From: Herpetosiphon gulosus
Lineage (GTDB): Bacteria > Chloroflexota > Chloroflexia > Chloroflexales > Herpetosiphonaceae
Reading direction: 5' to 3'
Assembly: GCF_039545135.1 (NCBI RefSeq)
Contig: NZ_BAABRU010000004.1
Location: 130,427-194,426 of the forward strand
DNA length: 64,000 bases
Below, one piece after another: positions 10,206 to 57,404 of the stretch. A program made the position numbers and the translations under genes. The first letter of the stretch is position 1. The number at the start of each line of letters is the position of its first letter. The notes under the pieces were generated by a model. That model did no database searches. It saw only the letters and a list, made by a program, of their open reading frames with translations, and was not told where the DNA came from.

Positions 10206-10206
10206 T

Positions 10207-10330: not shown

Positions 10331-10334
10331 GTCG

Positions 10335-11321: not shown

Positions 11322-11384
11322 TACAAAACACTCCCGTGGTGAAGCCGTTTCATGCTGCACTGCACAATAACGCGCCTAAAATGC

Positions 11385-13911: not shown

Positions 13912-14015
13912 ACTCCCTCACCCCAACCCCTCTCCCACGGCGGCGGGAGAGGGGCTTTTGGTTTGGTGGTTCCCCCTCGCTCGCGTGCAGGCTAGGGGGC
14001 TAGGGGGTGAGGGCA
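13912..14015. repeat. Family A palindromic repeat (single unit)
   Basis: ccctcaccccaacccctctcccacggcggcgggagaggggc ... gctagggggctagggggtgaggg. Confidence 0.85.
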
Positions 14016-27000: not shown

Positions 27001-28227
27001 ATGGCGCTTGACCAGCCAACGGTTGCCTTAATTGTCGGAATTGGCTTGTTGCTCCAAGCATTGGTAATTGGGGCTTTTTTAGTTTTTGTTCGGCGTTATC
27101 AAGGGATTCGCTGCTTTTTAATTGGCACGATTGGTTTAGGTTTGGGCTTTTTAGCCTTAGCTTTATTGCCCCAAACCTCATTAGCAGCAATCACAAGTAG
27201 TTATATTTTGATACTCAGTGGCTTGTTTGGGCTAAGCAGTGGGATTTTACGCTTCATCGGGGCTACCAGTTCAGCCAAAATTTATGCGATCTGTTGGCTA
27301 ATCGTTGCTGGAATGCTCAGTCTGTGTGCTTGGTGGTTTGCCGATCCAGGCTTAATTATCAATTTGGCGATGCTGCTTGGTAGCGCAGGCATGGCCTATA
27401 CTGCGCTCCAAGTATTTTTTCAGCGCACCATCCCCTATCAAAGTGCCAGTCGTTTGTTGGCTTTGGCCTTGACCCTCAAAATTGCAATTATCTTTTTGGG
27501 CTTGGCCTATTTTTGGTATAGCCAGCGCTGGCCGAGCCTGACGACCTTGAAACTAGGCTATAGCGTGCTGATTTTGCTGCTTTCGCTGCTGTGGACTGGC
27601 GGCTTTGCGGTAATGATTACCCAGCGCATGCAATGTGATTTATCGGCCTTGGCCAGCATTGATGTCTTAACGGGCATTGCCAATCGCCGCGCAATCAACG
27701 AATATTTAGAGCAGGCGATTGCCAAATGGCGACGCAACCAGCAGGGTTTTGCGGTAATCATGCTCGATATTGATTGTTTTAAACAGATTAATGATCGTTA
27801 TGGTCACCACGCTGGCGATTCCGTGTTGCGCCATATTGCCTTGGTGCTGAGCGAACAAGTGCGAATTAACGATCTAATTGGGCGCTGGGGAGGCGAAGAG
27901 TTTCTTTTGATTGTTGATGCCGATACGATCCAGCAAGCAACCTTGATGGCTGAACGCTTACGTCAAGCTATTCAGCAACAACCAACCGTCTGGGATGATC
28001 ACGTGATTCAGCATACAGTCAGCATTGGGATTGCGCTCTGTGGAACGCATGGCTTCAACGAAGCCCAATTACTGACTGCTGCCGATTTAGCGCTTTACGA
28101 GGCCAAGGAAACTGGTAAAAATCGCTGGATTGTCTATGAGCGCCGTTTGTTGAACCAGCTTGATCCAGCGCTAGAACTGGCCAACGAAGGGCTTATTTTC
28201 GATGTTGATTCATCGATTTATGCCTAA
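27001..28227 (+). CDS. Diguanylate cyclase (GGDEF) with N-terminal 6-7 TM sensor region
   Basis: GGEEF active site (RWGGEEFLLIV) and RxxD-like I-site context. Membrane N-terminal half. Confidence 0.85.
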   Translation: MALDQPTVALIVGIGLLLQALVIGAFLVFVRRYQGIRCFLIGTIGLGLGFLALALLPQTSLAAITSSYILILSGLFGLSSGILRFIGATSSAKIYAICWLIVAGMLSLCAWWFADPGLIINLAMLLGSAGMAYTALQVFFQRTIPYQSASRLLALALTLKIAIIFLGLAYFWYSQRWPSLTTLKLGYSVLILLLSLLWTGGFAVMITQRMQCDLSALASIDVLTGIANRRAINEYLEQAIAKWRRNQQGFAVIMLDIDCFKQINDRYGHHAGDSVLRHIALVLSEQVRINDLIGRWGGEEFLLIVDADTIQQATLMAERLRQAIQQQPTVWDDHVIQHTVSIGIALCGTHGFNEAQLLTAADLALYEAKETGKNRWIVYERRLLNQLDPALELANEGLIFDVDSSIYA

Positions 28228-29417
28228 TGCGCTGGTTGAGCTTGCGGTTCAGCGCTAGGCAAACCAACGGCAATCAACGCTCCTGCCACAACTAACACGC
28301 TGCCCATCAGGTAGGGCGAAGCTTCGCCAACGTTGGAAAGCATCCAAGTGGCATACAACGGGGCAAAAATCCGGGCCAAACTGCTCATCGATTGATACAA
28401 GCCCATATTCTCGCCCCGCTCGCTAGCTGGTGAATTGCGGCTGACCAACGACGAAAGCGATGGCGTGAGCAAACCTTCGCCAACTGCCAGCACAATACAA
28501 ATTGCCACCAAATGCCAAACATTTTGAATAAAGCCCAGGCCTGCCAATGAAAGTGCTAGCAGCAACGAGCCTGAGACAATCAGGGTTGCTTCACCAAACC
28601 GCGCCGCCAAGCGCCGAATTAAGCCGCCTTGCACAATCGCCACTACAATCCCAACCCCAGCCAAGGTATAGCCAGTTTGATGCGAGCCAAACTCCAAACG
28701 CCGCGCTGCAAACAAGGCAAAGGTGGTTTCAAAGGCCACAAATGCCAAGTTAATCAACAAGGTAATGCTGAGCAAACGGCCAACATTCGGCTTGCGAACT
28801 GCGGCCAAGAGTTTCATGAGATTAAAAGTACGGCCTTGTTGGGGGGCATGGCGCTCTGGCTCAGGCAACATCACAATCGTTAAAATTAAACTCAGCACTG
28901 CAATCCCCGCTGCCACAAAAATTGGCAACTGATAATTGCCATCTTTGCTGAGCAATGCGCCAATTGCTGGCCCAGCGATAAAGCCTAAGCCAAGTGCCGC
29001 CCCAACCATGCCCATGCCACGAGCACGATCTTTATCGGTGGTAATATCACTAACATAGGCTTGGGCAATCGAGATATTGCCGCCAGTTGCGCCATCGAAC
29101 ATGCGCCCGACAAACAGCCAAATCAGGCTATTAGCAAAACCAAACAGCAACAAGCTACAAACTGTGCCAATCAAACTTAAAATCAACAGCGGGCGACGAC
29201 CATAGCGGTCGGATAATTGGCCAAGAATCGGGGCAAAAATAAATTGCATCAAGGCATAACTACCGACAATCATGCCAACCTGAACCTCGGAAGCCCCAAA
29301 CTCCTGCGCATAAAACGGCGTGATCGGAATCACCACACCATAGCTCATGGTTCCAACAAACGCGATCAAAAAAATGGTCAAAAGTGGAGAGCGTTTCATA
29401 GGCGAGTCTATAGCCAA
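28224..29417 (-). CDS. MFS transporter
   Basis: 12-TM protein with MFS motif A (GQLSDRYGRRPLL). Confidence 0.85.
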   Translation of the reverse strand: MAIDSPMKRSPLLTIFLIAFVGTMSYGVVIPITPFYAQEFGASEVQVGMIVGSYALMQFIFAPILGQLSDRYGRRPLLILSLIGTVCSLLLFGFANSLIWLFVGRMFDGATGGNISIAQAYVSDITTDKDRARGMGMVGAALGLGFIAGPAIGALLSKDGNYQLPIFVAAGIAVLSLILTIVMLPEPERHAPQQGRTFNLMKLLAAVRKPNVGRLLSITLLINLAFVAFETTFALFAARRLEFGSHQTGYTLAGVGIVVAIVQGGLIRRLAARFGEATLIVSGSLLLALSLAGLGFIQNVWHLVAICIVLAVGEGLLTPSLSSLVSRNSPASERGENMGLYQSMSSLARIFAPLYATWMLSNVGEASPYLMGSVLVVAGALIAVGLPSAEPQAQPAH

Positions 29418-29443
29418 GCGGCTACTGGCTCCTTATCACTAGA

Positions 29444-30592
29444 TTAACCGTTGCCATTACGGCGAGCGGCGAGAACATCTTCAACCGCCAGCGAACAACC
29501 GCGCAATTCTGCGCCGCTGGCTCGACCAAGCACCTCAAACCCATCAGCTACAACCACGCCTAAATCTTCGGTTTGCAATGCGAGTACCGAGTAGAGATTA
29601 GCCAAATCAAGGTGGCGTAACAGTCCAGTTTGGCCAGCAGGCAATGGTGCAAAGGTGGTTGGATCGACGATCTGGGTGCGAACCCAGGGCACAATCACCT
29701 TATGGCGTGGTTGCCATTCGCGGAGGTAGGCCGAGTGCAACGAGCAATCGTAAAATTGGCTGCCCAGTTCGGTCATACCATATTCGTTGACACACATAGT
29801 CGATGGAATCCCCAAAACTTCGCTGTAGAGCGCATAGAGATCGTTGCGGGCAATTTCGCGCACTTTGCCTTTGGAGCCGCCGGTATCCATCAAACGGCTA
29901 CCTTTGGGCAATTGCCAACGCTTGCCATGCTCGGCGCACCAATCCAAAAAATAGACGAAGGTATACATCACGCCCATCAAGCAAACCGGAGTATTCTTGG
30001 CCACTGCTGCATCAAGCGATTCGGCGAGGCTGGCTGAATCTAGGCCTGCTGCACTAAACACATAGCGGCTTTCAGCTGTGCCATGCTGCTCCACTGCATC
30101 GCTGATCATATGTGCTAGCGACGACTGTGGTAGCTCATTGGGATGCCAAAAAAGCACATAGATTGGCAGGCGTTTAGCATCGGGAAACAGATGATAGGCT
30201 AAATTTGGCCGTAACGACGCTTCATACAACGAGCGATCGCGAATATAGTGCGTGCCCCGTTGTTCACTGCCTTGGGTCGTACCGCTGGTGCGATAGATCG
30301 CCTGGGCTTCTTCGGGCGGAAAGGTGGTTAAGGGCAGATGTTTGAAGGCCGTGGTTGGCACTGCCGGAATCTCCGACCAATGCTTTACCCGCTCAGGGCT
30401 GAGCATCCGCCGTTCGCAATAGCGCTGATACACCACATTATGCTGCCATTGATAGCGAAACGTGCGCAAGGCTAAATCATTAAACAAACTATCGTCATCG
30501 GGGTCAATCGGGCGAACACCCGCTTGCATCAAAGCCCGAATTTCAAAATCGAGCGTTTCAATTTCGTTCATTTCCAACCTCAGGTGAGCCAA
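29444..30592 (-). CDS. LuxE-family acyl-protein synthetase (AMP-forming)
   Basis: IPAVPTTAFKH...RTSGTTQGSEQRG aligns with LuxE IPVFPTSVFKF...TSSGTNGLKSQ, from my recall of the Vibrio LuxE sequence. 382 aa. Confidence 0.7.
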   Translation of the reverse strand: MAHLRLEMNEIETLDFEIRALMQAGVRPIDPDDDSLFNDLALRTFRYQWQHNVVYQRYCERRMLSPERVKHWSEIPAVPTTAFKHLPLTTFPPEEAQAIYRTSGTTQGSEQRGTHYIRDRSLYEASLRPNLAYHLFPDAKRLPIYVLFWHPNELPQSSLAHMISDAVEQHGTAESRYVFSAAGLDSASLAESLDAAVAKNTPVCLMGVMYTFVYFLDWCAEHGKRWQLPKGSRLMDTGGSKGKVREIARNDLYALYSEVLGIPSTMCVNEYGMTELGSQFYDCSLHSAYLREWQPRHKVIVPWVRTQIVDPTTFAPLPAGQTGLLRHLDLANLYSVLALQTEDLGVVVADGFEVLGRASGAELRGCSLAVEDVLAARRNGNG

Positions 30593-30882: not shown

Positions 30883-31239
30883 ATGGTCTTAGTTGTCGAT
30901 GATTCGCCGTTTATTCGTGCGTTTGTGGCAGCAGCCCTAGCACGGATCGACGTGGCAACTTGCGAGGCTGAGAGTGTGAGGGCAGCGCGTGCCATCTGTC
31001 ATGAGCGAACATTGGAAGCAGTGGTGGTGGATTTTGAGTTGCCCGATGAGCCTGGTGTGGCCTTATGTCGCGAGATGCAACGGTTGAGCAATGTGCCAGT
31101 TGTCCTGATGAGTGGGCATAGCGAGGATGATGTGCGTGCTCAATTCCCCTTACATCAACAACCCTACTTCCTAGCCAAACCCTTCACCCTCAATCAAATT
31201 CAAGGGCTGATTCAGCAAATCATCGGCGTTGCCTGCTAA
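30883..31239 (+). CDS. Single-domain response regulator (CheY-like REC)
   Basis: MVLVVDDSPFIRAF N-terminus, acceptor Asp at VVDFELPD, and conserved Lys at LAKPF. Confidence 0.75.
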   Translation: MVLVVDDSPFIRAFVAAALARIDVATCEAESVRAARAICHERTLEAVVVDFELPDEPGVALCREMQRLSNVPVVLMSGHSEDDVRAQFPLHQQPYFLAKPFTLNQIQGLIQQIIGVAC

Positions 31240-31268: not shown

Positions 31269-31359
31269 GGGTGGGTCGCATAGTTGGTCGAGTGCGCGGC
31301 ACTGGAAATGCCGTAGGGTGTCAAAGCTCTCGAGGGTTCGAATCCCTCTCCACCCGCCA
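31269..31359 (+). tRNA. tRNA-Ser (anticodon GGA), class II with long variable arm
   Basis: Manual fold. Acceptor gggtggg/tccaccc, D-stem gcat/gtgc, anticodon stem cggca/tgccg with loop ctGGAaa, an 18-nt variable arm, and T-arm gaggg-ttcgaat-ccctc. The discriminator is g, and CCA is encoded. Confidence 0.85.
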
Positions 31360-33317: not shown

Positions 33318-33887
33318 TCAACCAACCTGTTTATGTAAACCTTCGCCTAATTCTTCAATAAATTTGCGATTGAAGGCCGGAATATCTTGGGGATTGCGGC
33401 TGGTCACTAGGCCATTATCGACCACGACCTCGCGATCAACCCACTCGGCTCCCGCATTTTTCAGGTCGTTTTGTAAGGTTGGGTACGATGTGAGCATACG
33501 GCCTTTGGCAATTCCAGCATCGATCAGCGTCCAAGGGCCATGGCAAATGGCAGCAATTGGTTTGCCAGCCTCGGCCATCGCTCGTACAAAATTCAAAACG
33601 CTGGTTTCGCGCCGCAGTTTATCGGGGTTCATTACGCCGCCAGGCAACAACAACCCATCATAATCAGCAGGGTTGACTTGCTCAAGCGTATAATCAACGG
33701 CAATCTCGCTGCCCCAATCTTGCTCTTTCCAGCCGCGAATCGTGCCAGCCTTGAGCGAAATGACATGGGTTTTGGCTCCGGCTTGCTCTAAGGCTGCTTT
33801 TGGTTCTTCAAGCTCGCTTTGCTCAAAGCCATGAGTTGCAATAATCGCCACTCGTTTGCCCTTTAAATGATGACTCATACTTCGCAT
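33318..33887 (-). CDS. DJ-1/PfpI family protein (class I glutamine amidotransferase-like; deglycase or protease)
   Basis: KRVAIIATHGFEQSEL, then the nucleophile elbow IAAICHGPWTL. Confidence 0.85.
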   Translation of the reverse strand: MRSMSHHLKGKRVAIIATHGFEQSELEEPKAALEQAGAKTHVISLKAGTIRGWKEQDWGSEIAVDYTLEQVNPADYDGLLLPGGVMNPDKLRRETSVLNFVRAMAEAGKPIAAICHGPWTLIDAGIAKGRMLTSYPTLQNDLKNAGAEWVDREVVVDNGLVTSRNPQDIPAFNRKFIEELGEGLHKQVG

Positions 33888-33989: not shown

Positions 33990-35348
33990 TTATTTATCAG
34001 GCGCTGCTGGCACGCTGCTTGGTGGTTGCGAACGGAAAAAGCGCGAGGCGGCAAGCAATACTTTGGGTGTAAACAAGCTCGCGGCTGAGCCGATCATATG
34101 AATCGCGCCAACCATGGCGTTGGTAGCAGCATGATTGCCTGCCGCCGCCATATTTACCTTATCGCTATACCATTGCAGCACGCGAATCGGCAAAATTGGG
34201 CGATAGGTCGGCGTATCAGCCAGTCGTGAATCTTCGCTGATGGTGGTAAGCCAGCCCGCTTTGTTGCGGCGAGCCAAGGCTTTTTGGAAGCTCAAGGCCC
34301 ATGGTGCGCTGCCTATGCCCTCACGTTGCAGATGCTTGGCTAAAACCTGAACGCTCATGGCAGTATTAGTAATACCTTGGCCATAAATTGGATTCAAGGC
34401 ACACACGCTATCAGCAATCGCAATGAGGCCAGCGGGCATGACTGGCAATTGTTCGTAATGCACCCAACGATTTTCGGTTTTGGCATAACCATAGACTTGG
34501 CTGGCAGGCGTAAATTTCTGGGTAATTTCAGCAATCAAGGGCGTGCGCATCCGTGCCAACCAAGCCTCAAACTCGGTACTATCGGTTGGCGGGCGTTGGC
34601 TGCCAACTCCGCCAATCGTCAAGAGCCATTGGTCGTTTTCAACCTTAAGAAAAGTTGCGCCATGGCGAATATGCGGCGGCATCGGCATCACAAAGATCGC
34701 TGGCCAGCCTTGCCAATCGGCAGGAGCGGTGTACATTCTGGTGGCATAGCCCACATCTGATTTGTAAATGGTCTCTTTGACTCGCCCAAATTGATGTTGT
34801 TCCAGCCATTCTGGCAGCTTGGATGGACGACCAGCCGCATCGACAACCAAGTTGGCATTAAGTTCATGCTGCTCACCAGTATCACGATTGCGCAACTTGA
34901 CCCCGACAACTTGTCGCCCGTGAAAGAGCAAATCAGTCACTTCTTGGCGCGTTTGGATTTCAATATTGGGAATTTGGCGAATGCGCCCAAGAATCGCTGC
35001 ATCGAACAAGGGGCGGGTGGCGATGATGCTGCGATAATCCGAGGGTCGTGGTTCGGCCCAGCCTGCCGCAAATAAATAACGACAATCGTTCATCAGATCA
35101 AGCTCGTTGCCGCCAAGCGCCTTCATATCTTCGCGAATGTTGGGAAACAGTTTTTCTAATTCGAGTAAACCGCGCATCAGCAACAAGTGCAATTGGCGAC
35201 CTTGCGGCACGCCCGCCCGAAATTGCACCCCATCGGGCAGCGTATCACGCTCCAAAATCGTCACTTTAGCATAAACGTCACTCAACACACGGGCACTCAA
35301 TAAGCCACCGATGCTGGCTCCGATCACAATCGCATGGTCTCGTCTCAT
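33990..35348 (-). CDS. FAD-dependent monooxygenase-like protein, paralog 1
   Basis: DHAIVIGASIGGL dinucleotide-binding motif followed by ...ILERD. A GD-type second FAD motif (IADSVCALNPIYGQGITN) and a 100-aa C-terminal extension. 452 aa. Confidence 0.7.
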   Translation of the reverse strand: MRRDHAIVIGASIGGLLSARVLSDVYAKVTILERDTLPDGVQFRAGVPQGRQLHLLLMRGLLELEKLFPNIREDMKALGGNELDLMNDCRYLFAAGWAEPRPSDYRSIIATRPLFDAAILGRIRQIPNIEIQTRQEVTDLLFHGRQVVGVKLRNRDTGEQHELNANLVVDAAGRPSKLPEWLEQHQFGRVKETIYKSDVGYATRMYTAPADWQGWPAIFVMPMPPHIRHGATFLKVENDQWLLTIGGVGSQRPPTDSTEFEAWLARMRTPLIAEITQKFTPASQVYGYAKTENRWVHYEQLPVMPAGLIAIADSVCALNPIYGQGITNTAMSVQVLAKHLQREGIGSAPWALSFQKALARRNKAGWLTTISEDSRLADTPTYRPILPIRVLQWYSDKVNMAAAGNHAATNAMVGAIHMIGSAASLFTPKVLLAASRFFRSQPPSSVPAAPDK

Positions 35349-35422
35349 AGTACACCTCCCAAATCTGAAATGTACTCCTGCATATTCTAGTAGTATAGCA
35401 GGGCTGGATTCAGTTGCCTATG

Positions 35423-36784
35423 CTATACGTTGACCTGCAAGGGCAAGTTTGGCACTGCATCGGAATATTTAGGCCGAATTTTGCTCAGCAGCACGGGAAT
35501 AAACACCCGTGGATGAAATAGCGCATTTGGATTGCCGATCATATGAATTGTTTTGATAAACTCGCTAAAAACCACGTTACTATTCAAACTGGCCTGATTA
35601 ATTTGATCAAAATAGGGTGCGATTAGTTTACTCAACAACGGGCGTTTGAACGATGAATCGTAACGCGAATCTTCACCACTCGCCATTTCCCAAGGGAATT
35701 GGTTGTTCTTGGCTAAAACTTGTTGAAAACGCTGACCCCAGGCTGCTGAGCCACGATCTTGCTGTTTGAGCTGGTTACCTAGCAAGATTGCGCCTAGGGT
35801 GGCAGTGCTAATCCCCTGCCCATAAACCGGATTAAAGGCACAAACCGCATCGCCCAAGGCAATTATTCCTGCTGGCAGGTGCATGCGCTCGTAGTGGCGT
35901 TGGCGATTTTCGGTACGCCCATAGCCACTGGTTGGGCTAAGCGGCTGCGATTTACTCAACAGATCGGCCAAAATTGGCGAGGGCAATTCGCGCAGCCATT
36001 GCATAAAACCATCTTCATCGGTTGGTGGCTTGGCCTGATTGACCCCGCCGCCAGTCACAATCCAGCGATTGCCCTCAACTTCGAGCAAAATCGCGCCTTT
36101 GGGAACGGTCGGCGGCTGTTGCATCACAAACAGGCCTTTCCATTCATTCCAGCCTTCGGGCTTAGCATAGAGCCGCGACGTATAGCCAAGTTTGGCATCG
36201 AGCACGGTTTCGCTTACCTTGCCACAACCAAGTTCAGCCAGCCATTCTGCCAATTTGGAATTGCGCCCACTGGCATCGACAACCAAATCGGCATGCAAAC
36301 TCTGTTCGCTGCCATCTTGGCGATTGCGCACCTGCACCCCTTGAATATGGCGACTATTGCCGATCAGATTGAGGGCATCGTGTTGGGCCAAAAACTGAAT
36401 CTTAAGGTTTTGCAATAAGCGCCGCCGAATTGCCCAATCAAACAAAGGGCGAGTTGCCGAGAGCGTTTTCAATTCGGTTGGCTGGGGCACTGTCCAGCCA
36501 TTTTTGAGGTAATAGCGACAATCGTTGATCATATCCACTGATTGTGCCCCAAGATCTTGCAGTTCTTGGTTGATGCCTGGAAAAAGCGTTTCCAGCTCGC
36601 GTGCACCACGAATCAGTAGCAAATGCACATGGCGACCTTGCGGCACACCCGCCCGAAAATCACCAGCCTCGGGCAAGCTATCGCGTTCGAGCACACTAAC
36701 TCGGCCATAATGTTGGCTCAACATGTGGGCGGTAATCAGGCCGCTAATACTGGCTCCAATCACAATTGCATGATCTTGCAGCAT
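35423..36784 (-). CDS. FAD-dependent monooxygenase-like protein, paralog 2
   Basis: MLQDHAIVIGASISGL... It is collinear with paralogs 1 and 3 over the full length. Confidence 0.7.
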   Translation of the reverse strand: MLQDHAIVIGASISGLITAHMLSQHYGRVSVLERDSLPEAGDFRAGVPQGRHVHLLLIRGARELETLFPGINQELQDLGAQSVDMINDCRYYLKNGWTVPQPTELKTLSATRPLFDWAIRRRLLQNLKIQFLAQHDALNLIGNSRHIQGVQVRNRQDGSEQSLHADLVVDASGRNSKLAEWLAELGCGKVSETVLDAKLGYTSRLYAKPEGWNEWKGLFVMQQPPTVPKGAILLEVEGNRWIVTGGGVNQAKPPTDEDGFMQWLRELPSPILADLLSKSQPLSPTSGYGRTENRQRHYERMHLPAGIIALGDAVCAFNPVYGQGISTATLGAILLGNQLKQQDRGSAAWGQRFQQVLAKNNQFPWEMASGEDSRYDSSFKRPLLSKLIAPYFDQINQASLNSNVVFSEFIKTIHMIGNPNALFHPRVFIPVLLSKIRPKYSDAVPNLPLQVNV

Positions 36785-36786
36785 AG

Positions 36787-38175
36787 TTAAGCTCCTTGGC
36801 TAGCGCTGAGAATGGTCGGGATCGCGGGCGTTGGGTTGGGAGTTGCTGATTGTAAGCGCCCTTTGAGCACATTCCAGATCATCGCTGGGTGCAGTAAGCC
36901 ACTGGGATTACCAGTCATATGCACAATCGGCGTGAAGCGGTTGAGCACGATTGGATTATTGCTTGATGCCAGATTGATTTGATCAAAATAATTGCGCAGC
37001 AGGGTCGCCCCAAACGAACGCTTGACGCTGGTGTTATAGCGGGCATCTTCGCCCACCGCGATGCCCCAAGGAAATTGATTGCTCTTGGCGAGCGCTTGTT
37101 GGAAGCGCTGACCCCAGGCTGCCGAGGCCCGATCTTGTTCTTTTAAATGCTGGCTCAGCAAAATCGCGCCCAAGGTGGCGTTGCTAATACCTTGCCCATA
37201 AATTGGATTAAAGGCACAAACCGCATCACCAAGCGCGACCACTCCCGCAGGCAGGCTAAGTTGCTCATAATGGCGTTGGCGATTTTCGGTGCGGCCAAAA
37301 CCAACCAAGGGGCTAATTGGCTGGGCCTTGCTCAGTAATTCATACAAAATCGGCGAACACAATAGTTTGAGCCAATTTAGCCATTCGGCCTCATCAAGTG
37401 GTGGCTTGGCCTCGTTGAATCCACCACAGGTCACCATCCAGCGATTGCCCTCGATCTCAGTTAAAATCGCGCCACGTGGATTAACCAATGGTCGTTGGCG
37501 CACAAATAAGCCCTTCCATTCGTTCCAGCCTTCGGGTTTGGCATAGAGCCGTGAGCAATAGCCCACATTCGAGGCAATCACGGTTTCGGGCACTGCTTGG
37601 CAACCGAGCGCTTGCAGCCATTGAGCAAGTTTAGATGAACGCCCACTGCAATCGACCACAAGTTCGGCCAAAAATTGGTGTTCAACTTCGGTATCGCGGC
37701 GTTTGGTATTGATACCCCGCACATGACGCAAATCCCCAACCAAGCCAAGCACATCGGTTTGGGTTTCGAGCCGAATCTTGGGGTTTTGACGTAAACGCTG
37801 CAACAACACCCAATCGTAGAGCGGGCGGCTAGCCGAGATTGTGCGATGGGTTGATTGATGCGGTTTGGCCCAACCACCAGCCATCAAATAGCGATAATCA
37901 TTCATCAAATCGACCGACTGTGCGCCGTGGGCCACGAGTTCCTGTCCAATGCCAGGGAAAAGCATTTCAAGCTCACGCGCCCCACGCATCAACAGCAGAT
38001 GCAGGTGACGAGCTTGCGGCAAACCAGCCCGCACATCGATCGAGTCGGGCAAACTATCACGTTCGATAATCGTTACTTGGGCAAAATAGTGGCTGAGGAT
38101 GTGTGCGGTCACTAAACCGCTAATGCTTGCGCCAATAACCAGCGCATGATCGTGACCCATCATAGCTCCTTCCAA
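36787..38175 (-). CDS. FAD-dependent monooxygenase-like protein, paralog 3
   Basis: MGHDHALVIGASISGL... The start is probably 38160-38163. It is separated from paralog 2 by 2 nt. Confidence 0.7.
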   Translation of the reverse strand: MEGAMMGHDHALVIGASISGLVTAHILSHYFAQVTIIERDSLPDSIDVRAGLPQARHLHLLLMRGARELEMLFPGIGQELVAHGAQSVDLMNDYRYLMAGGWAKPHQSTHRTISASRPLYDWVLLQRLRQNPKIRLETQTDVLGLVGDLRHVRGINTKRRDTEVEHQFLAELVVDCSGRSSKLAQWLQALGCQAVPETVIASNVGYCSRLYAKPEGWNEWKGLFVRQRPLVNPRGAILTEIEGNRWMVTCGGFNEAKPPLDEAEWLNWLKLLCSPILYELLSKAQPISPLVGFGRTENRQRHYEQLSLPAGVVALGDAVCAFNPIYGQGISNATLGAILLSQHLKEQDRASAAWGQRFQQALAKSNQFPWGIAVGEDARYNTSVKRSFGATLLRNYFDQINLASSNNPIVLNRFTPIVHMTGNPSGLLHPAMIWNVLKGRLQSATPNPTPAIPTILSASQGA

Positions 38176-38363
38176 GGCAAGTGGAATTCAACGCACACAA
38201 CAATTCTGGCTACTAACGTTTGATTCTCTAGCAAACGTAGCAGGTTGAAGCATGCTGCTGTGGTTGATGGAGCAATTGATGGGTGGATTGATGTGGGTAT
38301 GTTTGACTCCATGCAGCAGCCAAAAATTTGATTGCTGCATCTTAGCATAATTCAGGGTTTTTG

Positions 38364-39485
38364 CTAGCGTGGTTGCCAAAATGGGCGATCAGGCCAGCGC
38401 TGTTCTTGGGCATAAATCTGCTGGCGAAGCTGGCGATAAGCTTGCCAAGCCTGCTCAATCTGATGTCCATAGCCATGCAGCGCGGCAATTGAGCCTTGGT
38501 TGGCAGCGATTAAACATTGAGCGGCATCGCGGGCGCTGGTTAATCCCACCGTAATTCCATGGGCCGCCAGCGGATCATAGCTCATGGCCGCGTCGCCGAT
38601 CGCCAGCCAACCATTGCCATAGCAGCGATCTAAGCGGCTACTGCTAGCATCGACCCAATACGGTTGGGCACAAAGCTGGTGTTGATCGAGCCATTGTTTG
38701 GCCCAAGTGCTACATTTGAGGGCTTGCCACCAACCCTCGGCATGAACAAGCTTTTGGCGTTGGGTGGCAGTTGGGTGACCAATAAAAATGCTGGCCATTT
38801 GAGCTTGCGGCACTCGCGCCACATACCACCAACCATCAGCTACCGCCTCGACCAAGCTCCGCTGATCGGGCCATGGCTGAGCTTGCGGCTCCAGCATCGC
38901 CACCAAACCAAGCTGTTTGGGGCCATCAATCTGGGTTTGTATTCCCAATCGCCGCGCTAGCCAACGTGCTCGGCCAGTCGCCTCAATCAGCCAGCGCGTT
39001 TGAAATAATTGCTCGCCAACCCCCATAATCCAGCGCTCAGACTGACGTTCGAGGTAGCTAATTGACACTGAACTGAATGTTACGCCCAATCCAAGGCCGC
39101 GCTGGCGGAGCTGCTGCTCAAAGTGCGGTCGATTGAGATGCCAGCCATGGCCATAGGGCGTTGCCAAAAAATCATGATGATAGAGCGCATCTGATCCCCA
39201 AGCTGCTAGATTGCCCGGGCAAATCGAATGCTCCCGATCAAGATCTAGACCCAGCTCGTGCACCAACGGGCGAGCGGCAGGCGCTAAACTTTCGCCAAAG
39301 CACTGTGGCCGCGTAGGCGGGCGTTCGAGTACAACCACCTGCAACCCATGCCGTGCGAGATGCACGGCACAGGCGCAGCCAGCGATGCCGCCGCCAACGA
39401 TCAAACAATCAATCGTTATTGGCTTCGGCGGCATTTTTGCGTCCTCGCTTGAGGCGTTGTTGTGGCCAATTGAGGTCGCTATCAA
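38364..39485 (-). CDS. lodB: LodB-like FAD-dependent flavoprotein (CTQ cofactor biogenesis partner)
   Basis: ITIDCLIVGGGIAGCACAVHLARHGLQVVVLER Rossmann motif, with a likely start MPPKP at 39434. It is about 370 aa, located immediately 3' of and overlapping lodA, as in Marinomonas lodAB and goxAB. Confidence 0.7.
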   Translation of the reverse strand: MIATSIGHNNASSEDAKMPPKPITIDCLIVGGGIAGCACAVHLARHGLQVVVLERPPTRPQCFGESLAPAARPLVHELGLDLDREHSICPGNLAAWGSDALYHHDFLATPYGHGWHLNRPHFEQQLRQRGLGLGVTFSSVSISYLERQSERWIMGVGEQLFQTRWLIEATGRARWLARRLGIQTQIDGPKQLGLVAMLEPQAQPWPDQRSLVEAVADGWWYVARVPQAQMASIFIGHPTATQRQKLVHAEGWWQALKCSTWAKQWLDQHQLCAQPYWVDASSSRLDRCYGNGWLAIGDAAMSYDPLAAHGITVGLTSARDAAQCLIAANQGSIAALHGYGHQIEQAWQAYRQLRQQIYAQEQRWPDRPFWQPR

Positions 39486-41352
39486 CCAGATCGGTATCTG
39501 GCTCGGCGGCTAGACTACGGGTTAATTGGGGAGCCTCGGTTTCAACCTTGCGACCTGTTTCAACCCAGAGCGTTTGTGGAAAACTGGCGCTATGTTCAGG
39601 CCCAGTTTGGGCGATGATAATGCCCACGGTATCCCATTCGTTGGTAAATTTAGTAATTGCCGGCACGGTTGGAATATGGCCTGGTGGAATGCTCTCAGTG
39701 TAGACCATCCCGCGCAGCCACTTGCGGCGGGTAGTCGGCGCGAAGGCTTGGGCACGCTCTTCAGGCGTAGCATCAGGGTTCATAATAATCTGGTAGCTCT
39801 CTTGGCTAAGCACATCGTTGGGCACACGAGCAGGCCAAAAAGTGGGCAAATAGGTTCCGGCATAGCCCATATAGGCTGAGAGACAGCTTGAAGTATCGGT
39901 TTGCCAAGGCACGGCCATCCAACGGGTGATCGCCCCAGCATCGCTGGCATACAACATCCCATTGGGAGCTAAGGCAGTAGCCGCATCAAGCGTATCGCCC
40001 CAATCTGGCTCAGGGCTGGTGCGACGTTTGAGCCGAAATGGCGCTACATACATCGAAGCATGACGTAACGGCCAAGTGAATTCGCAGCCGGGGTGAAACG
40101 GGCCGCCCAAGGTTGCATCAAGCGCTGCCCGCGTGAGATTGTAGGCCTGTTCAGCCGGATCAAGCTGCTCCCACGACCTGACCACGGGCAAACCATCGGC
40201 AATAAAATCGCCATTGGCCCATTGCTCGAGCCAACGATATTGGCTTGGCAGAATTGCTTGCCACTCCTGCGGATCGGTGGTTTTGGTGTTGAGCGTAATC
40301 GCATCGCCATAAAACAATGGCAGGCCTTCGGGATCGATATAGGGATTACTGGGACTGCGCATTTGAGCTAAAACAGCTTGGCGCAATGGTTCGCTAGCAG
40401 CACTAGGATCGCCCAAGTGGGCGATCAACTCGGGATTATTGAAATCACTGGGGCTGCCCCAACCAAAACTACGGGCAAACCCAGCGTTAACCCATTGCAA
40501 CTGACTAAAGCGTGAGAGCAGGGGATAAATTTCGCTGCTAAAACGTGGCTTGGCTGGTGCAAGCGTCGGATCAAGCTGCATCGCCACTTCAAATAGCAAA
40601 TCGTAGCCTGTCATAATCGAATTTGTGCCTGGGGCATAATCAGGTGGCGCAACAATCACCCAAGCATGAGTTGCCTGTAAAACGCGGCCATCACTCAATT
40701 TGACCACGGCCTCAATCGGGCCATCGGCAGTATCGTCGTGCCAATCATCGTTATCGGCAAAGGTGGTTAAGGGCTTACCATGGGCTGAAGCTGAGTGACC
40801 ACGTCCGCCCAGCACAATCAAATTGCCCTGTTCATCGGTGCGCAATTCGCCCAAATAAACTTGCTTGCCAAAGAATGTGCCCTGATCAAAGGCATAGATC
40901 GCCTCTGCTCCCTGAGGGTTGACATTTAGGCCACAAATACTGCGTGTGCCACCGTCGATTGTCAATTGATCGCGCTTGGTTACATCAGCATTGCGGCGCT
41001 TGCTGACAATTTTGCCATCGGCCGAGGCCGGAATATCCAGCGCTTGGATAAATTCGTACCACGCGGCTTTTTGATTGGCGAGCTGCGCCGTCCAGACAAT
41101 TTCTTGCAGATCAGGATTGGTTTGGTTTAACTCGCAAATCACCTCACCTGCGGAATTCAAGCCATAAACCCGAAACCGCGCCGCTTGGCGTTTGATCGCG
41201 CCACTAGGATCGCGAAACAAGTCGGGGTCAACTTGAGGCGCACCCAACACTTCGGGGCCATAAAAAAATTCATTTGGGCTATTTCCGACGCGAGCAAAGC
41301 CAACCGGAGGATAAATCGCAACGCTGACAATCTCAGCACAAGCCATAATCAA
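39409..41352 (-). CDS. lodA: LodA/GoxA-family quinoprotein amino-acid oxidase (cysteine tryptophylquinone, H2O2-generating)
   Basis: Multiple blocks match LodA of Marinomonas mediterranea as I recall it: VAIYPPVGFARVGNS (LodA VHPSIGVARLGNA), VWTAQLANQKAAWYEF (LodA WTVHLANKKAAWYEF), GNLIVLGGRG (LodA GRLIVLGGYG) and AVPWQTDTSSC (LodA ACPWQADFFNC, which has the CTQ Trp). A candidate CTQ Cys lies in HPGCEFTW. 647 aa. Confidence 0.85.
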   Translation of the reverse strand: MIMACAEIVSVAIYPPVGFARVGNSPNEFFYGPEVLGAPQVDPDLFRDPSGAIKRQAARFRVYGLNSAGEVICELNQTNPDLQEIVWTAQLANQKAAWYEFIQALDIPASADGKIVSKRRNADVTKRDQLTIDGGTRSICGLNVNPQGAEAIYAFDQGTFFGKQVYLGELRTDEQGNLIVLGGRGHSASAHGKPLTTFADNDDWHDDTADGPIEAVVKLSDGRVLQATHAWVIVAPPDYAPGTNSIMTGYDLLFEVAMQLDPTLAPAKPRFSSEIYPLLSRFSQLQWVNAGFARSFGWGSPSDFNNPELIAHLGDPSAASEPLRQAVLAQMRSPSNPYIDPEGLPLFYGDAITLNTKTTDPQEWQAILPSQYRWLEQWANGDFIADGLPVVRSWEQLDPAEQAYNLTRAALDATLGGPFHPGCEFTWPLRHASMYVAPFRLKRRTSPEPDWGDTLDAATALAPNGMLYASDAGAITRWMAVPWQTDTSSCLSAYMGYAGTYLPTFWPARVPNDVLSQESYQIIMNPDATPEERAQAFAPTTRRKWLRGMVYTESIPPGHIPTVPAITKFTNEWDTVGIIIAQTGPEHSASFPQTLWVETGRKVETEAPQLTRSLAAEPDTDLVDSDLNWPQQRLKRGRKNAAEANND

Positions 41353-41388
41353 ATCTCCTTAATAAACCATTCAAACATTTTTTAAAGG

Positions 41389-42402
41389 CTAAGTTAAATC
41401 GTGACGAGGTTGGCGTGGCTCCACAAGCGGAATGCCATTACGTTGGCGGCGCAACTCTGCCGAAGCTTGATAGACCACTTTGCGAGCTTCACTAATACTG
41501 CCGACTGGAGCGTGTTCGGGCAGTGCATGCCATGGGTTGAAGGCCAGATTTTCAACGTAAGCGGCTTGACCAGGCGCATCAATATCTTGTTGGGGCAGGG
41601 TTAGGGTTGCCACATGCAGCGGCGGCGCTAGCTCGGTTGACCATTCGACGGTTGCAGCATCCAACGGCATCAGCTTAGGATTGGTGCGCAGTTGAATGCT
41701 AAAGTGCAGATCAATCGGGCCGGCCAACAAGCGACTATGCAGATCATCGTGCAAAAAGTTGGGGTTGAGCTGTGGGTTGCTCGGCGGTTGCGGATTGAGC
41801 GATTCAAGCGCCAAGTGATATTTGACGTAACGGCCTTGACCAAAAGCATAGGGCAGACCGCTCCAATAAACTGCATCGAAGACACTAGCCAAATTTTGCT
41901 GCATCAGATCAAGAATTTTGCGGGTTTTGGGGTGTTTGGCGAGATAGGCATCATAGCCATCACCTACCAAGCCTTCGTAGGTAAATTCGCACATATCCTT
42001 GGCGGTATCGACAAAAAAGACTGGATAATTTTGCAAGACCAAATCGTGAGTTAATGCATCTTCTTCACCAGTTAATAATTTACGACCGTGTACCCCAAAT
42101 AGCTTGATCCCTACACCCAAGGTTGTGCCAAGATCGCTGGCAAACGGCACGGTATCGCTGGAAAAGCGCAGCCAAGCCGCAAGCTGATCGTAAGCCAACA
42201 AGCCAACTCGTAGCTCGGCTGGCAAATCGGGGCGAACCCACCAAGTCGCTTTGGCCCCACCGTGCGGCTTAAGAAACACCGCCCGTCGAACCGGATCTTG
42301 TCCGGCGTTAATCCGCGTGCCCATAGTTTTGTTGACAAATAGCTGGCGTAGTTGGGTGATGGGATCAGCACATGGACAATCGTGAGCATGATCTGAACTC
42401 AT
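41389..42402 (-). CDS. Small catalase-related haem protein (mini-catalase or peroxidase-like)
   Basis: 337 aa. The C-terminal SEARKVVYQASAELRR fits the catalase proximal ligand motif R-x3-Y-x2-S-x3-R. RRAVFLKPHGGAKA resembles the distal RVVHAKGxGA region. Confidence 0.45.
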   Translation of the reverse strand: MSSDHAHDCPCADPITQLRQLFVNKTMGTRINAGQDPVRRAVFLKPHGGAKATWWVRPDLPAELRVGLLAYDQLAAWLRFSSDTVPFASDLGTTLGVGIKLFGVHGRKLLTGEEDALTHDLVLQNYPVFFVDTAKDMCEFTYEGLVGDGYDAYLAKHPKTRKILDLMQQNLASVFDAVYWSGLPYAFGQGRYVKYHLALESLNPQPPSNPQLNPNFLHDDLHSRLLAGPIDLHFSIQLRTNPKLMPLDAATVEWSTELAPPLHVATLTLPQQDIDAPGQAAYVENLAFNPWHALPEHAPVGSISEARKVVYQASAELRRQRNGIPLVEPRQPRHDLT

Positions 42403-42456
42403 ACAAGCTCCTCATTGCAGCGTGATCGATGAGGGCAGCCAATTTTAAGAATATTC

Positions 42457-42560
42457 CCTCACCCCCACCCCTCTCCCACTGCGGCGGGAGAAGGACAACT
42501 GGCGGGATAGTTCCCCCTCGCCTCGCTTGCGGGAGCGGGGCCAGGGAGTGAGGGATGGAG
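42457..42560. repeat. Family A palindromic repeat (degenerate unit)
   Basis: tccctcacccccacccctctcccactgcggcgggagaagg ... gggagcggggccagggagtgaggg. Confidence 0.8.
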
Positions 42561-42612
42561 ATTATTGTCAATCCAATAAACTATTTCGCCTAGCAATTGA
42601 CTGCTTAGTTAA

Positions 42613-51046: not shown

Positions 51047-52141
51047 TTAGGACGATCCTTTGGTGGATTGAAGCAAGCGATATTCTTCGATCACTGGGCG
51101 CAATTGCGCTTGGAGTTCACGGGCAATCCCACGGCCAAATTGGCTGGATACCATTTCATTCAGCGGGCGCAACAATTCTAAACATTGGTCGGGTGTACGG
51201 GTTGTGCCCACCAAACTCAAGGCTTGCCACCACTCGTCAGCTGTGATTGGCCCAACCACATCGGCCACGATGCTATGCATTTCATCGAGCAAGTTTGCCA
51301 AGCGCCGCCGGACTAGCACCATCGTCACATCATCGTGTTTAAGCTGGCCTTGAGTCCATGCCCGAACTTCGCTGAGCACGCGGGCCATCAAGGCGCGAGG
51401 CTTGAGATGGCCAACTGCTTGTAATAGGCTTTGAAAGCGTGGGTAGCCATACAATACTTGGTGTTCATTGGTCGCTTCAACAATGCCATCAGTGTACAAC
51501 ATGACCGAATCGCCATAGTTCAGTTGTAAGATGGATTCACTATAACAATCAATTTCCATAACCCCAAGCGGCACACCTGACGTTTCGATTTCAATCACTT
51601 GATTATTGATCACAATCAGATAATTGTGACCAGCATTCGCCAAGTGCATCATGCCCGTTTGCGGGTCGATTAAGGCATACAGCATCGTAACCATGCCTTG
51701 GGGCATTTCTTCGATCAAAATATTATTCACGGCTGCTAAGGTTTGGCCTGGTGATTGGCCGCGCCGCACTTCAGCCCGAAATACCGTTCGCGCCACCGCC
51801 ATCCGCAATGCTGCGGGTAAGCCTTTGCCGCTGACATCGCCAATCATAATGCCCTGGGTACCATTGACCGCCAGAAAATCGTAGAGGTCGCCGCCAAGCT
51901 CACGCGCTGGCAATGAGACCGCGCTCATTTCCCAGCCAGGCAGACGTGGCACGGTTTCGAGCATCAAGCCCTGTTGCAAATCGCGTGCCAATTGCAAATC
52001 TTGTTCCAACTCAGCTTGGCGTTGGTCGATCACTGGCGCTGCGGGCGGCGTTGGCACTGGTGGCTCAAGCGCAACCGCCACACGACCTTGGGCGCGGTGA
52101 CTGAGCAGTGAACTATAGATTGCTGATTGTGCTTTTTGCAT
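51047..52141 (-). CDS. PP2C-type (SpoIIE/RsbU-like) Ser/Thr phosphatase
   Basis: GGDLYDF and GDVSGKGLPAALRMA metal-binding motifs, plus a C-terminal HDDVTMVLVRR motif. Confidence 0.85.
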   Translation of the reverse strand: MQKAQSAIYSSLLSHRAQGRVAVALEPPVPTPPAAPVIDQRQAELEQDLQLARDLQQGLMLETVPRLPGWEMSAVSLPARELGGDLYDFLAVNGTQGIMIGDVSGKGLPAALRMAVARTVFRAEVRRGQSPGQTLAAVNNILIEEMPQGMVTMLYALIDPQTGMMHLANAGHNYLIVINNQVIEIETSGVPLGVMEIDCYSESILQLNYGDSVMLYTDGIVEATNEHQVLYGYPRFQSLLQAVGHLKPRALMARVLSEVRAWTQGQLKHDDVTMVLVRRRLANLLDEMHSIVADVVGPITADEWWQALSLVGTTRTPDQCLELLRPLNEMVSSQFGRGIARELQAQLRPVIEEYRLLQSTKGSS

Positions 52142-52145
52142 AGTT

Positions 52146-53606
52146 TTAGAATGTTCCTTGGCTGGCTTCTAATCCGCCAATCCAGCGTTCACAAGCAGAA
52201 CGCAACCACCCCACGGCGATTCCATCGATTACGGTGCTACTTGAATGGTGCGCCAATTTGCGCAAGGCATGTTGATAATAACGTAAGGCGGCGGTTGACC
52301 GCCCTTGATGGCGATAACTTTCAGCTAAATGAAAGGCAATCGTCGGCGAATCAGGCACCAAATAGCTGGCTCGCTCAAGATAATTGATCGCTTTATCCCA
52401 TGCGCCTTGGTTGAGTTCGATCATCCCCAGCACCACATAGGCAGCATCTTGTAGCACATCAAGCTCTAAAGCACGCCGCGCCTCAGCCGCCGCTTGCTCA
52501 TGTTGGCCAAGATCGGCGTGTAGTTGTGCGGCTAAAGCCAAAATTGCTGGCTGGCGTTGGTTGGGTGCAATACTCGCCAACAGGCTTAATCCACGTCGCT
52601 GCTGACCTTGACCGCGCAATTTCCGTGCTTCATCCAATAAGCTCGTCACATCGGGCGGCTTACTTGGGCTAGCTGGCGCTAATGGCCGTGTGCTTGGGCG
52701 GGGCCGCGCTAGTGCTGGTTCGGCTGGCTTATTCAGCGGCTTGGTAATTGGCCGTTCGCTCAAGTTGGGGCGTGGTTTGGGCTGACCATCGCCTTTACGA
52801 TAGATAAATGCCCCAGCTACCTCGACCGTTTCAAAGCGATCAAAAATGCCCCACAGCGATTCGGAAAAGCCCAAGAGCAAATAGCCACCAACCGCCATCG
52901 CCGCATAAATCCGTTCGATCAATTGGCGACATGTTTCCAGCTGAAAATAGATCGTGACATTCTGGCAAAATACCACATCAAGCTGATAGGCCCAATGTGG
53001 TAGGGCATCGAGCAAATTGTGCTGCTCAAATTGTACCAAGGATCGCACGGCTTCGCTGACGCGCAAGGCTCCGTTGGCTTGCTGCTCAAACCATTGTCTG
53101 TAGTCGGCTTGCACATTGGCCAGCGAACGCCCACGATACTCGGCGGTGATCGCTCGCTCCAAGGGCACATTGCTCAAATCGGTGGCCCAAATCGAAATCG
53201 GGCGGCTCGGCGGATTGCCCCATTGCTGCAAGCCAACCATGGCCATACTATAGGGTTCCTCGCCAGTTGAGCAGCCAGCACTCCAACAACGCAATGGCCG
53301 CAAGGGCGAACGCGAACGCTGCAATTCAGGAAAAATATGCTCACGCAACGCCCGAAAATGAGCTGGGTTACGAAAAAACTGGGTCTCGTGATTGGCCAAG
53401 CGTTCGGCCAACCATTGCAACTCGCTGCCATTGGTCGGGTCTTGAATCCGCAATGTATAGGCAGCGGGGCTAATCTGCAACTGCCGATAACGCTCCTGAA
53501 CCAGCATGCGGCCTTGGCGCATACGACTATCATCGAGATATAAGCCAGCCCGTTGAGCTAGATAATCGCGGATGATCATCCACTGTTCAGTGCTCAACTC
53601 GCTCAT
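52146..53606 (-). CDS. cheR: CheR-type chemoreceptor methyltransferase fused to C-terminal TPR repeats
   Basis: FFRNPAHFRALREHIFPEL and WSAGCSTGEEPYSMAM SAM-methyltransferase motifs. The C-terminal 200 aa have TPR units. Confidence 0.85.
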   Translation of the reverse strand: MSELSTEQWMIIRDYLAQRAGLYLDDSRMRQGRMLVQERYRQLQISPAAYTLRIQDPTNGSELQWLAERLANHETQFFRNPAHFRALREHIFPELQRSRSPLRPLRCWSAGCSTGEEPYSMAMVGLQQWGNPPSRPISIWATDLSNVPLERAITAEYRGRSLANVQADYRQWFEQQANGALRVSEAVRSLVQFEQHNLLDALPHWAYQLDVVFCQNVTIYFQLETCRQLIERIYAAMAVGGYLLLGFSESLWGIFDRFETVEVAGAFIYRKGDGQPKPRPNLSERPITKPLNKPAEPALARPRPSTRPLAPASPSKPPDVTSLLDEARKLRGQGQQRRGLSLLASIAPNQRQPAILALAAQLHADLGQHEQAAAEARRALELDVLQDAAYVVLGMIELNQGAWDKAINYLERASYLVPDSPTIAFHLAESYRHQGRSTAALRYYQHALRKLAHHSSSTVIDGIAVGWLRSACERWIGGLEASQGTF

Positions 53607-55044: not shown

Positions 55045-55091
55045 TGAAAAACTCCTCGCAGGGGAATATAGGCCTTCAGGGCTGCGCTACT

Positions 55092-57389: not shown

Positions 57390-57404
57390 GCGATAGCTCC
57401 TCGC

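Follow-up and report, generated by a model that had tools for sequence, protein, structure and literature searches.

Tandem MonCI/Lsd18-family flavin monooxygenase genes in Herpetosiphon are independent of the adjacent LodA/GoxA-type oxidase cassette

We analyzed a 64,000-nt stretch of the Herpetosiphon gulosus genome (contig NZ_BAABRU010000004.1, positions 130,427 to 194,426; "the window" below means this whole stretch), in which three consecutive genes, designated A, B, and C, encode paralogous flavin adenine dinucleotide (FAD) monooxygenases beside the genes of a LodA/GoxA-family oxidase and its LodB-like flavoprotein. With high confidence, A, B, and C can be assigned to the MonCI/Lsd18 (polyether epoxidase) branch of the class A flavin monooxygenases, independent of lodA; they are uncharacterized new members of an already known family. 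On balance, the best overall explanation of the locus is that these are tandem, stand-alone MonCI/Lsd18-family monooxygenases that probably oxygenate a long hydrophobic substrate.

Three tandem flavin monooxygenase genes

The array reads as follows, in window coordinates.

36787..38163, minus strand: gene A, MonCI/Lsd18-family FAD monooxygenase paralog, 457–458 aa (open reading frame and start-codon context)
35423..36784, minus strand: gene B, MonCI/Lsd18-family FAD monooxygenase paralog, 453 aa (open reading frame)
35349..35422, minus strand: B–C intergenic spacer, 74 nt, with GGGAGG ahead of the ATG of C (sequence)
33990..35348, minus strand: gene C, the most divergent and most constrained paralog, 452 aa (open reading frame)

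The longest open reading frame of A begins at a TTG (38175) and spans 36787–38175 (462 aa); the true start is more likely the ATG at 38163 or 38160, because AAGGAG directly precedes it and the orthologues are annotated at 457 aa. A preliminary description of this DNA had reported three collinear, full-length paralogs separated by gaps of 74 and 2 nt, and the reading frames and both gaps proved to be exactly so. The pairwise amino acid identities computed here were 59% between A and B and 42–43% between C and either of the others. All three are real genes rather than chance reading frames, since orthologues occur in six Herpetosiphon genomes with ratios of nonsynonymous to synonymous substitution rates (dN/dS) of 0.04–0.13.

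The N-terminal motif, HAL/HAIVIGASI(S/G)GL, is a GxSxxG variant of the dinucleotide-binding motif, so that the Rossmann-type motif described previously stands, with HAL and HAI variants. The GD-type second FAD motif, which had been ascribed to all three proteins, is found in A and B (GDAVCAFNP(I/V)YGQG) but not in C, in which the corresponding segment is ADSVCALNPIYGQG, with AD in place of GD (ADSVCALNP versus GDAVCAFNP). This replacement is fixed in six of six C orthologues, as is RQLH in place of RHxH.

B begins 2 nt past the stop codon of A, and its AAGGAG sequence sits within the 3′ end of A. A single weak promoter-like match was found in the B–C spacer (35420–35392, score 9/12, not above the shuffle expectation), with no terminator-like site, and promoter and terminator scans of the array gave nothing exceeding the shuffle expectation. 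The tight A/B junction with its internal Shine–Dalgarno sequence and the lack of terminator-like sites between the genes suggest a single transcript; judged from the spacing, A, B, and C probably form one transcription unit, in agreement with the earlier proposal of co-transcription, and the transcript possibly reaches the DJ-1/PfpI family gene that follows C.

Assignment to the MonCI/Lsd18 family

Scans with Pfam and NCBIfam models returned generic, sub-threshold flavoprotein matches only and gave no family name: the Pfam match to A–C was FAD_binding_3 at 30–43 bits, and the NCBIfam models were all far below their cut-offs. In phmmer searches against the PDB, the three proteins matched MonCI and Lsd18 with E-values of 1e−51 to 1e−69 overall. 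For MonCI, the E-values were 5.4e−69 (B), 6.6e−64 (A), and 1.2e−58 (C), and for Lsd18 they were 1.2e−68 (B) and about 1e−59 (A); the next PDB family, a halogenase, followed at about 1e−6 to 1e−8 (e.g., 2e−6). The Lsd18 alignments reached residue 442 of A and residue 451 of C (spanning residues 5–451 of the latter), indicating that the C-terminal extension belongs to the family as such rather than being an addition to it.

An AlphaFold2 model of B was made from 52 homologs (mean predicted local distance difference test score, 89.5). When compared with known structures using Foldseek, the model superposed on Lsd18 and MonCI with template modeling (TM) scores of 0.89–0.90 and a root mean square deviation of about 3 Å over 457–477 columns, and the superposition took in the C-terminal helical region beyond the PHBH-like core. 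The C-terminal part of roughly 100 aa noted in the preliminary description is real and is helical in this model (helices at 347–436 of B). The runner-up was human squalene epoxidase (TM score, 0.67–0.69), and UbiH, Bmp2, kynurenine monooxygenase, and tetracycline destructases were among the lower-ranked fold matches. Identity to MonCI and Lsd18 in the structural alignment was about 30%.

In Lsd18, R51 contacts the FAD adenine and H71 stacks on the isoalloxazine ring, whereas the substrate is contacted by A70, I72, W74, Y218, H239, V252, and V342; of these, Y218, V252, and V342 constitute the stereoselectivity pocket, which is conserved among polyether epoxidases (PMC12144862). In the phmmer alignment, Lsd18 R51, H71, Y218, V252, and V342 correspond to R34, H54, Y201, I232, and V320 of B. 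Across the family alignment of 52 sequences, H54 and Y201 did not vary, and R34 was retained in at least 90%. The residues of the stereo-pocket are Y/I/V in B, Y/I/I in A, and Y/T/I in C, the Thr of C being a partial departure. The FAD-binding residues, namely VIGASI(S/G)G, ERD (R34), RH/QxH (H54), and G/AD...NPxYGQG, were present in all three genes and in all their orthologues. Sequence, fold (in the B model), FAD-binding residues, and stereo-pocket all place the proteins in the MonCI/Lsd18 family, and the earlier statement that the family could not be named is superseded by the PDB phmmer and Foldseek results.

Conserved position with or without the oxidase cassette

The locus was compared among six Herpetosiphon species genomes. 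The comparison also took in duplicates of two of the six, namely a metagenome contig and a second assembly of H. llansteffanensis. The window was closely similar to Herpetosiphon aurantiacus DSM 785, with 95–97% protein identity across the locus. Three gene orders were found, in which p337 is a catalase-related protein encoded with LodA and LodB, and MAG denotes a metagenome-assembled genome.

Window, DSM 785, and GCA_020161265: C14 peptidase – p337 – LodA – LodB – A – B – C – DJ-1
MAG MFD03066 and H. llansteffanensis: C14 – A – B – C – DJ-1
H. giganteus, strain NSE202, and H. geysericola: C14 – B – C – DJ-1

The same caspase-like (C14) and DJ-1 genes flank the array in six Herpetosiphon genomes, and the array or its B–C core keeps its chromosomal position in five genomes without lodA and lodB. 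Because the array occupies the same site with or without the oxidase cassette, it is not tied to lodA. The preliminary description had held that placement in a well-characterized housekeeping family with synteny independent of lodA would speak against its view of the locus; the synteny is indeed independent of lodA, but the family is not a well-characterized housekeeping one. The gene on the far side of the array is a conserved neighbor in six of six Herpetosiphon genomes and lies on the same strand as the array.

33318..33887, minus strand: DJ-1/PfpI family gene, about 100 nt downstream of the array (Pfam DJ-1_PfpI, 1.1e−54)

On the other side, the array had been said to lie directly 3′ of lodAB. 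The gene order holds, but between lodB and A lies a conserved intergenic stretch of about 200 nt.

38164..38363, minus strand: conserved upstream region of the array, between lodB and A (intergenic alignment)
38312..38339, no strand assigned: palindrome TGCAGCAAYCAAAWWTTTGRTTGCTGCA, about 30 nt, about 150 nt ahead of the array's first gene (alignment)

This region aligns with the C14-to-A or C14-to-B intergenic DNA of the five lod-less genomes and, judging from that alignment, is the ancestral spacer leading from the caspase-like gene to the first gene of the array; the cassette of the aurantiacus lineage falls precisely between the C14 stop codon and the conserved region. On this comparison, the adjacency of the array to the LodA/GoxA–LodB cassette is accidental, having come about by insertion or deletion of the cassette.

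The palindrome is nearly invariant across seven of seven aligned loci, whereas the flanking intergenic DNA diverges, and it occurs once in the window versus zero occurrences expected by chance. As RNA, it would form a hairpin inside a −18 kcal/mol structure (z = −1.95). No T-run follows it, and the Rfam scan of the window gave no match at this position. It is a candidate regulatory element, putatively an operator or a 5′ hairpin.

Independence was also evident outside the genus. A survey of lodA-like loci found lodB to be the constant partner of lodA (PMC4417212) and reported no genes of the A–C type. The earlier statement that the array is not part of any described lod or gox locus is supported. 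The suggested check for co-occurrence of the triplet with lodA homologs showed no such link at the loci compared: the array is present without lodA in five Herpetosiphon genomes and is missing at the three lodA–lodB loci compared in other phyla. In the three LodA homolog contexts compared (Brevibacillus, a MAG, and Sorangium), a lodB-like gene was followed by nothing resembling A–C. The lod/gox locus is therefore not extended by three flavoenzymes, and models of cysteine tryptophylquinone (CTQ) biogenesis need no revision.

Duplication and divergence within Herpetosiphon

Orthologues of B and of C were found in six of six Herpetosiphon genomes, those of C being 91–98% identical. Orthologues of A were found in H. 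aurantiacus DSM 785, MAG MFD03066, and H. llansteffanensis, and were absent from H. giganteus, NSE202, and H. geysericola. A neighbor-joining tree was constructed from 18 Herpetosiphon proteins and 25 outsiders (453 columns, 100 bootstraps). A, B, and C were each monophyletic with 100% support, A+B received 99%, and A+B+C received 89%. The topology indicates that duplication took place within the Herpetosiphon lineage, with C splitting first and A and B later; furthermore, A has been lost at least once, because the sister group of the A clade is a B clade in which species without A also occur. The possibility that B in the two-copy species is an A/B recombinant was considered and rejected, as that protein is 85–87% identical to B of the window over its full length and shares the N terminus of B.

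All three copies are under strong purifying selection, with dN/dS values of 0.06–0.13 for A, 0.06–0.09 for B, and 0.04–0.07 for C. A, lost in three species, is dispensable, and the ranking of C as the most constrained copy and A as the least is consistent with this. The array is thus a genus-level tandem expansion that comprises two or three copies depending on the species.

The wider family and its neighbors

A profile search retrieved 4,142 clusters at 50% identity with E ≤1e−30 and 9,372 with E ≤1e−10. Family members came from cyanobacteria, Pyrinomonadaceae (Acidobacteria), and Chloroflexi, and their source names were "FAD-dependent monooxygenase" and "2-polyprenyl-6-methoxyphenol hydroxylase-like." The genomic contexts compared outside Herpetosiphon were six individual ones (Calothrix, Nostoc, Pyrinomonadaceae, two MAGs, and a Herpetosiphonaceae contig) and 80 metagenome loci. 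A second adjacent copy was seen at 2 of the 80 metagenome loci and in none of the six individual contexts, among which no common neighbor was found.

The 129 immediate neighbors pooled from the 80 metagenome loci and classified with Pfam were heterogeneous. The commonest recurrent one was an alpha/beta-hydrolase (Abhydrolase_1; 6/129, at loci L022, L048, L053, L064, L073, and L076), which has the fold of many epoxide hydrolases; at the Pyrinomonadaceae locus (L014), an alpha/beta-hydrolase neighbor is fused to a Trans_reg_C domain. UbiA prenyltransferase, SnoaL-like, and UbiE-type methyltransferase neighbors each accounted for 2 of the 129. These families would fit epoxide or prenyl-lipid chemistry, but the fit is too weak to be used. 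Across the 86 loci outside Herpetosiphon, there was no recurrent polyketide synthase (PKS), nonribosomal peptide synthetase (NRPS), or terpene synthase neighbor.

The analysis supplies a proper name, MonCI/Lsd18-like, for a widespread family that databases label "UbiH-like," and it flags an uncharacterized clade, most members of which are orphan single genes without a polyketide context. The characterized relatives of this clade are versatile, stereoselective epoxidases of biocatalytic interest.

Proposed function and alternatives

By analogy with MonCI, Lsd18, and class A enzymology in general, NAD(P)H would reduce the enzyme-bound FAD, O2 would react with the reduced FAD to give a C4a-hydroperoxyflavin, and one oxygen atom would be passed to a long hydrophobic, probably alkene-bearing, chain. 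The substrate would be held in a long or large cavity formed in part by the C-terminal helices. Tentatively, and with a little less than even confidence, we propose by the same analogy that the chemistry may be epoxidation, with a C=C bond of an isoprenoid, polyene, or unsaturated-lipid chain as its target. The window contains no PKS, carrier protein, terpene synthase, or MonB/Lsd19-type epoxide hydrolase, and no NRPS; since PKS and carrier proteins are lacking, a free lipid or isoprenoid is a likelier substrate than a tethered polyketide. Substrate overlap between A and B is probable, because almost all first-shell residues are common to both. C probably acts on a different substrate or position, as suggested by its fixed differences in the active-site region and by the strongest constraint among the three copies.

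Several observations weigh against this explanation. An identity of about 30% leaves room for another substrate class or even another reaction type. Lsd18 W74 is replaced by Leu in A, B, and C, and H239 by Gln in A and B and by Pro in C. The lack of a local PKS and of the other enzymes named above means that the substrates of the characterized relatives are not available locally, and the heterogeneous neighbors of the family elsewhere give no pathway context. Moreover, the operon structure is deduced from spacing only.

Among the alternatives, the one to be taken seriously, though we consider it unlikely, is a class A chemistry other than epoxidation, for example aromatic or quinone ring hydroxylation (UbiH/PHBH-like) or oxidative xenobiotic inactivation (tetracycline destructase-like), in which case the tandem copies would widen the substrate range. 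It would account for the "2-polyprenyl-6-methoxyphenol hydroxylase-like" source annotations, for UbiH, kynurenine monooxygenase, and tetracycline destructases among the lower-ranked fold matches, for the occasional UbiA prenyltransferase and UbiE-type methyltransferase neighbors at the metagenome loci (2/129 each), and for the lack of a local source of a polyene substrate. The DJ-1/PfpI gene here and a glutathione S-transferase gene at the Nostoc locus would fit a detoxification theme, and the low identity to the characterized enzymes and the differing contact residues also leave space for it. However, the E-values reached 1e−69 for the epoxidases compared with about 0.1 or worse for these other classes, and the TM score was 0.9 compared with 0.55–0.7. 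In addition, Lsd18 Y218/V252/V342 is matched by Y, I/T, and V/I, and the C-terminal helices, which form a long substrate tunnel in Lsd18 and MonCI, are retained.

A broader form of the epoxidase proposal is that a large, PKS-independent MonCI-like branch epoxidizes free lipids, with the diverged Herpetosiphon copies under control of the palindrome. The substrates would be carotenoids, polyprenyl quinone tails, squalene-like chains, or unsaturated acyl chains, and the two or three Herpetosiphon copies would carry out successive or position-specific oxygenations. If true, this would be a bacterial lipid-epoxidation function not yet described; we regard it as speculative and decidedly unlikely.

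We give little credence to the idea that A–C are trans-acting tailoring epoxidases for a polyketide or terpenoid cluster elsewhere in the genome, with one double bond per copy. The sole characterized relatives are natural-product epoxidases acting on carrier-protein-bound polyenes, and three diverged copies under selection would suit regiospecific steps. On the other hand, all described polyether clusters hold the MonCI homolog inside the cluster (PMC10560226). The window holds only housekeeping-type genes (fab, chemotaxis, and glycosyltransferases), the loci outside Herpetosiphon have no recurrent biosynthetic neighbor of the kinds named above, and the copy number is two or three depending on the species.

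The weakest proposal is the functional tie to LodA raised in the preliminary description, in which A–C would serve the LodA/GoxA-family oxidase as extra or alternative CTQ maturases or in processing its substrate or product: the genes do follow lodB directly and on its strand, have the general fold of class A flavoproteins in common with LodB, and give weak partial matches to the LodB and QhpG models (27–33 bits), but the array at the same site in five genomes without lodA and lodB, its own 200-nt conserved upstream region with the palindrome, the three nearest LodA homolog loci in other phyla without an A–C-like gene, the survey with lodB as constant partner and no such genes (PMC4417212), and scores of 18–33 bits against cut-offs of 400, 400, and 240 for LodB, GoxB, and QhpG make it highly improbable, and on these comparative data such a role appears essentially excluded. 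A and B scored 28 and 29 bits with the LodB model and 18 and 23 bits with the GoxB model, each over a stretch of about 65 residues, and C was not among the listed matches for either model. Among the three options that had been offered for A–C, the evidence favors the last, namely that they are parts of an unrelated pathway.

The oxidase cassette and other features of the window

The cassette next to the array consists of three genes.

38364..42402, minus strand: three-gene cassette, not part of the array (Pfam and NCBIfam; aurantiacus lineage only)
41389–42402, minus strand: p337, catalase-related 337-aa protein (PDB 3e4w, E 8.5e−6)
39409–41352, minus strand: LodA/GoxA-family oxidase (NCBIfam)
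38364–39485, minus strand: LodB/GoxB-like flavoprotein (NCBIfam)

The oxidase fell below both NCBIfam equivalog cut-offs (GoxA, 434 bits versus 750; LodA, 202 versus 600) and was nearer to GoxA than to LodA; "lodAB" is therefore a family label and not a substrate assignment. The cassette is absent from the same site in the five other Herpetosiphon genomes (loci L003, L004, and L008–L010), and no LodA-family relative was found in Herpetosiphon outside the aurantiacus lineage. The next LodA homologs, at most 56–57% identical, were from Brevibacillus, myxobacteria, Paenibacillus, and assorted metagenomes. The composition of the cassette showed no signs of foreign origin (GC content, 0.537 versus 0.512 for the window, with a similar GC content at third codon positions). 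The three genes (p337, the LodA-family oxidase, and LodB-like) provide a clean presence/absence polymorphism within one genus.

p337 had no Pfam match; its PDB match, 3e4w, is a small catalase-related heme protein. Over a stretch of 325 residues, p337 shows 56% identity with a LodA-family protein of Brevibacillus dissolubilis (948 aa), the match lying in the N-terminal third of the latter. Group III LodA-like proteins, which are uncharacterized, include N-terminal fusions of a catalase-related (y4iL-like) domain (PMC4417212). From the homology of p337 to a fused LodA N terminus and from these group III fusions, we infer that p337, LodA, and LodB are one functional unit, a split version of a known fusion. 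It is plausible that p337 handles the H2O2 made by the oxidase.

The spacer between C14 and p337 (42403–42612) holds an insertion of about 140 nt that is not in DSM 785 or GCA_020161265; DSM 785 instead carries a different one, about 230 nt long, in the interval from p337 to lodA. The 140-nt insertion carries GC-rich motifs of about 35 nt (e.g., ...CCCGCCGCAGTGGGAGAGGGGTGGGGGTGAGGG), copies of which lie near 2421–2517, 3966–4000, 6772–6868, and 13914–13950 and also at other Herpetosiphon loci. These motifs look like a dispersed repeat of the repetitive extragenic palindrome or miniature inverted-repeat transposable element type at intergenic sites.

Downstream of the array, synteny with the lod-less genomes breaks again past a response-regulator gene (30883–31239), at 27001–30592 of the window. 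There, the aurantiacus lineage has a LuxE-family acyl-protein synthetase, a major facilitator superfamily transporter, a GGDEF protein, and an FGGY kinase, and the lod-less genomes have a metallo-beta-lactamase-fold protein, an M17 peptidase, and urocanase. The only Rfam match of the window lies just downstream of the response-regulator gene.

31269–31356, plus strand: long-arm tRNA gene, 88 nt (Rfam, 53 bits)

The surroundings of the locus look like ordinary chromosomal content, including glycosyltransferases. A fatty-acid synthesis block (5317–11360, minus strand) encodes FabH-, FabD-, and FabG-like proteins and biotin carboxylase; a chemotaxis block (51047–58988, minus strand) encodes a SpoIIE-type phosphatase, CheR, CheB, a CheA-like protein, and a methyl-accepting chemotaxis protein; and a type I restriction-modification methylase subunit is encoded at 758–2317 (minus strand). 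A search of the literature on Herpetosiphon for LodA-like proteins or flavin monooxygenases found nothing relevant.

Comparison with known systems

The LodB, GoxB, and QhpG maturases have the general class A flavoprotein fold and FAD motifs in common with A–C. However, A–C exceed them in length by about 90 aa and are conserved in genomes that have no lodA. The UbiH/UbiF/Coq6-type hydroxylases are likewise class A FAD monooxygenases, which act on prenylated lipids, and UbiH was among the fold matches; nevertheless, A–C scored only 18.5–22 bits with the UbiH-type model TIGR01988, far below its cut-off of 224.65. As for the database label "2-polyprenyl-6-methoxyphenol hydroxylase-like," it was transferred generically and does not amount to a family assignment.

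MonCI (from monensin biosynthesis) and Lsd18, also called LasC (from lasalocid biosynthesis; PDB entries of the two, 8t3p, 9udb, 8up4, and 8wvb), are full-length homologs of A–C with the same fold, including the C-terminal helices. The likeness to MonCI and Lsd18 extends to the GxSxxG/GxGxxG N-terminal FAD motif, the RxGVPQxRHxH segment with the flavin-stacking His, and the GD...NPxYGxG motif; with Lsd18, A–C also have the stereo-pocket Tyr and hydrophobic residues in common. Some substrate contacts are unlike those of Lsd18 (W74 to Leu and H239 to Gln or Pro in A–C), and A–C are shorter (450–460 aa versus 488–511 aa for MonCI and Lsd18). MonCI and Lsd18 sit in actinomycete polyether clusters, whereas A–C are part of a large branch of stand-alone genes from Chloroflexi, cyanobacteria, and Acidobacteria. 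The functional context of the polyether epoxidases (MonCI, Lsd18, NanO, SalC, and TmnC), a type I PKS cluster with a carrier protein and MonB/Lsd19-type epoxide hydrolases, was missing, as no PKS, acyl carrier protein, or SnoaL-like hydrolase was found in the 64-kb window or at the five other Herpetosiphon loci. As a class A enzyme, MonCI contains bound FAD and works with either NADH or NADPH; its substrate cavity is unusually large, and it takes farnesyl-type surrogate substrates (PMC10560226).

Squalene epoxidase (SQLE; PDB 6c6n and 6c6p), the second-best fold, is a class A enzyme that epoxidizes a linear isoprenoid in free form. The eukaryotic enzyme receives its electrons from a separate reductase. 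With 16–17% identity to the array proteins and a marginal sequence match (E 0.006), it represents a separate family; as a functional analogy for an epoxidase that works independently of a PKS, it is plausible.

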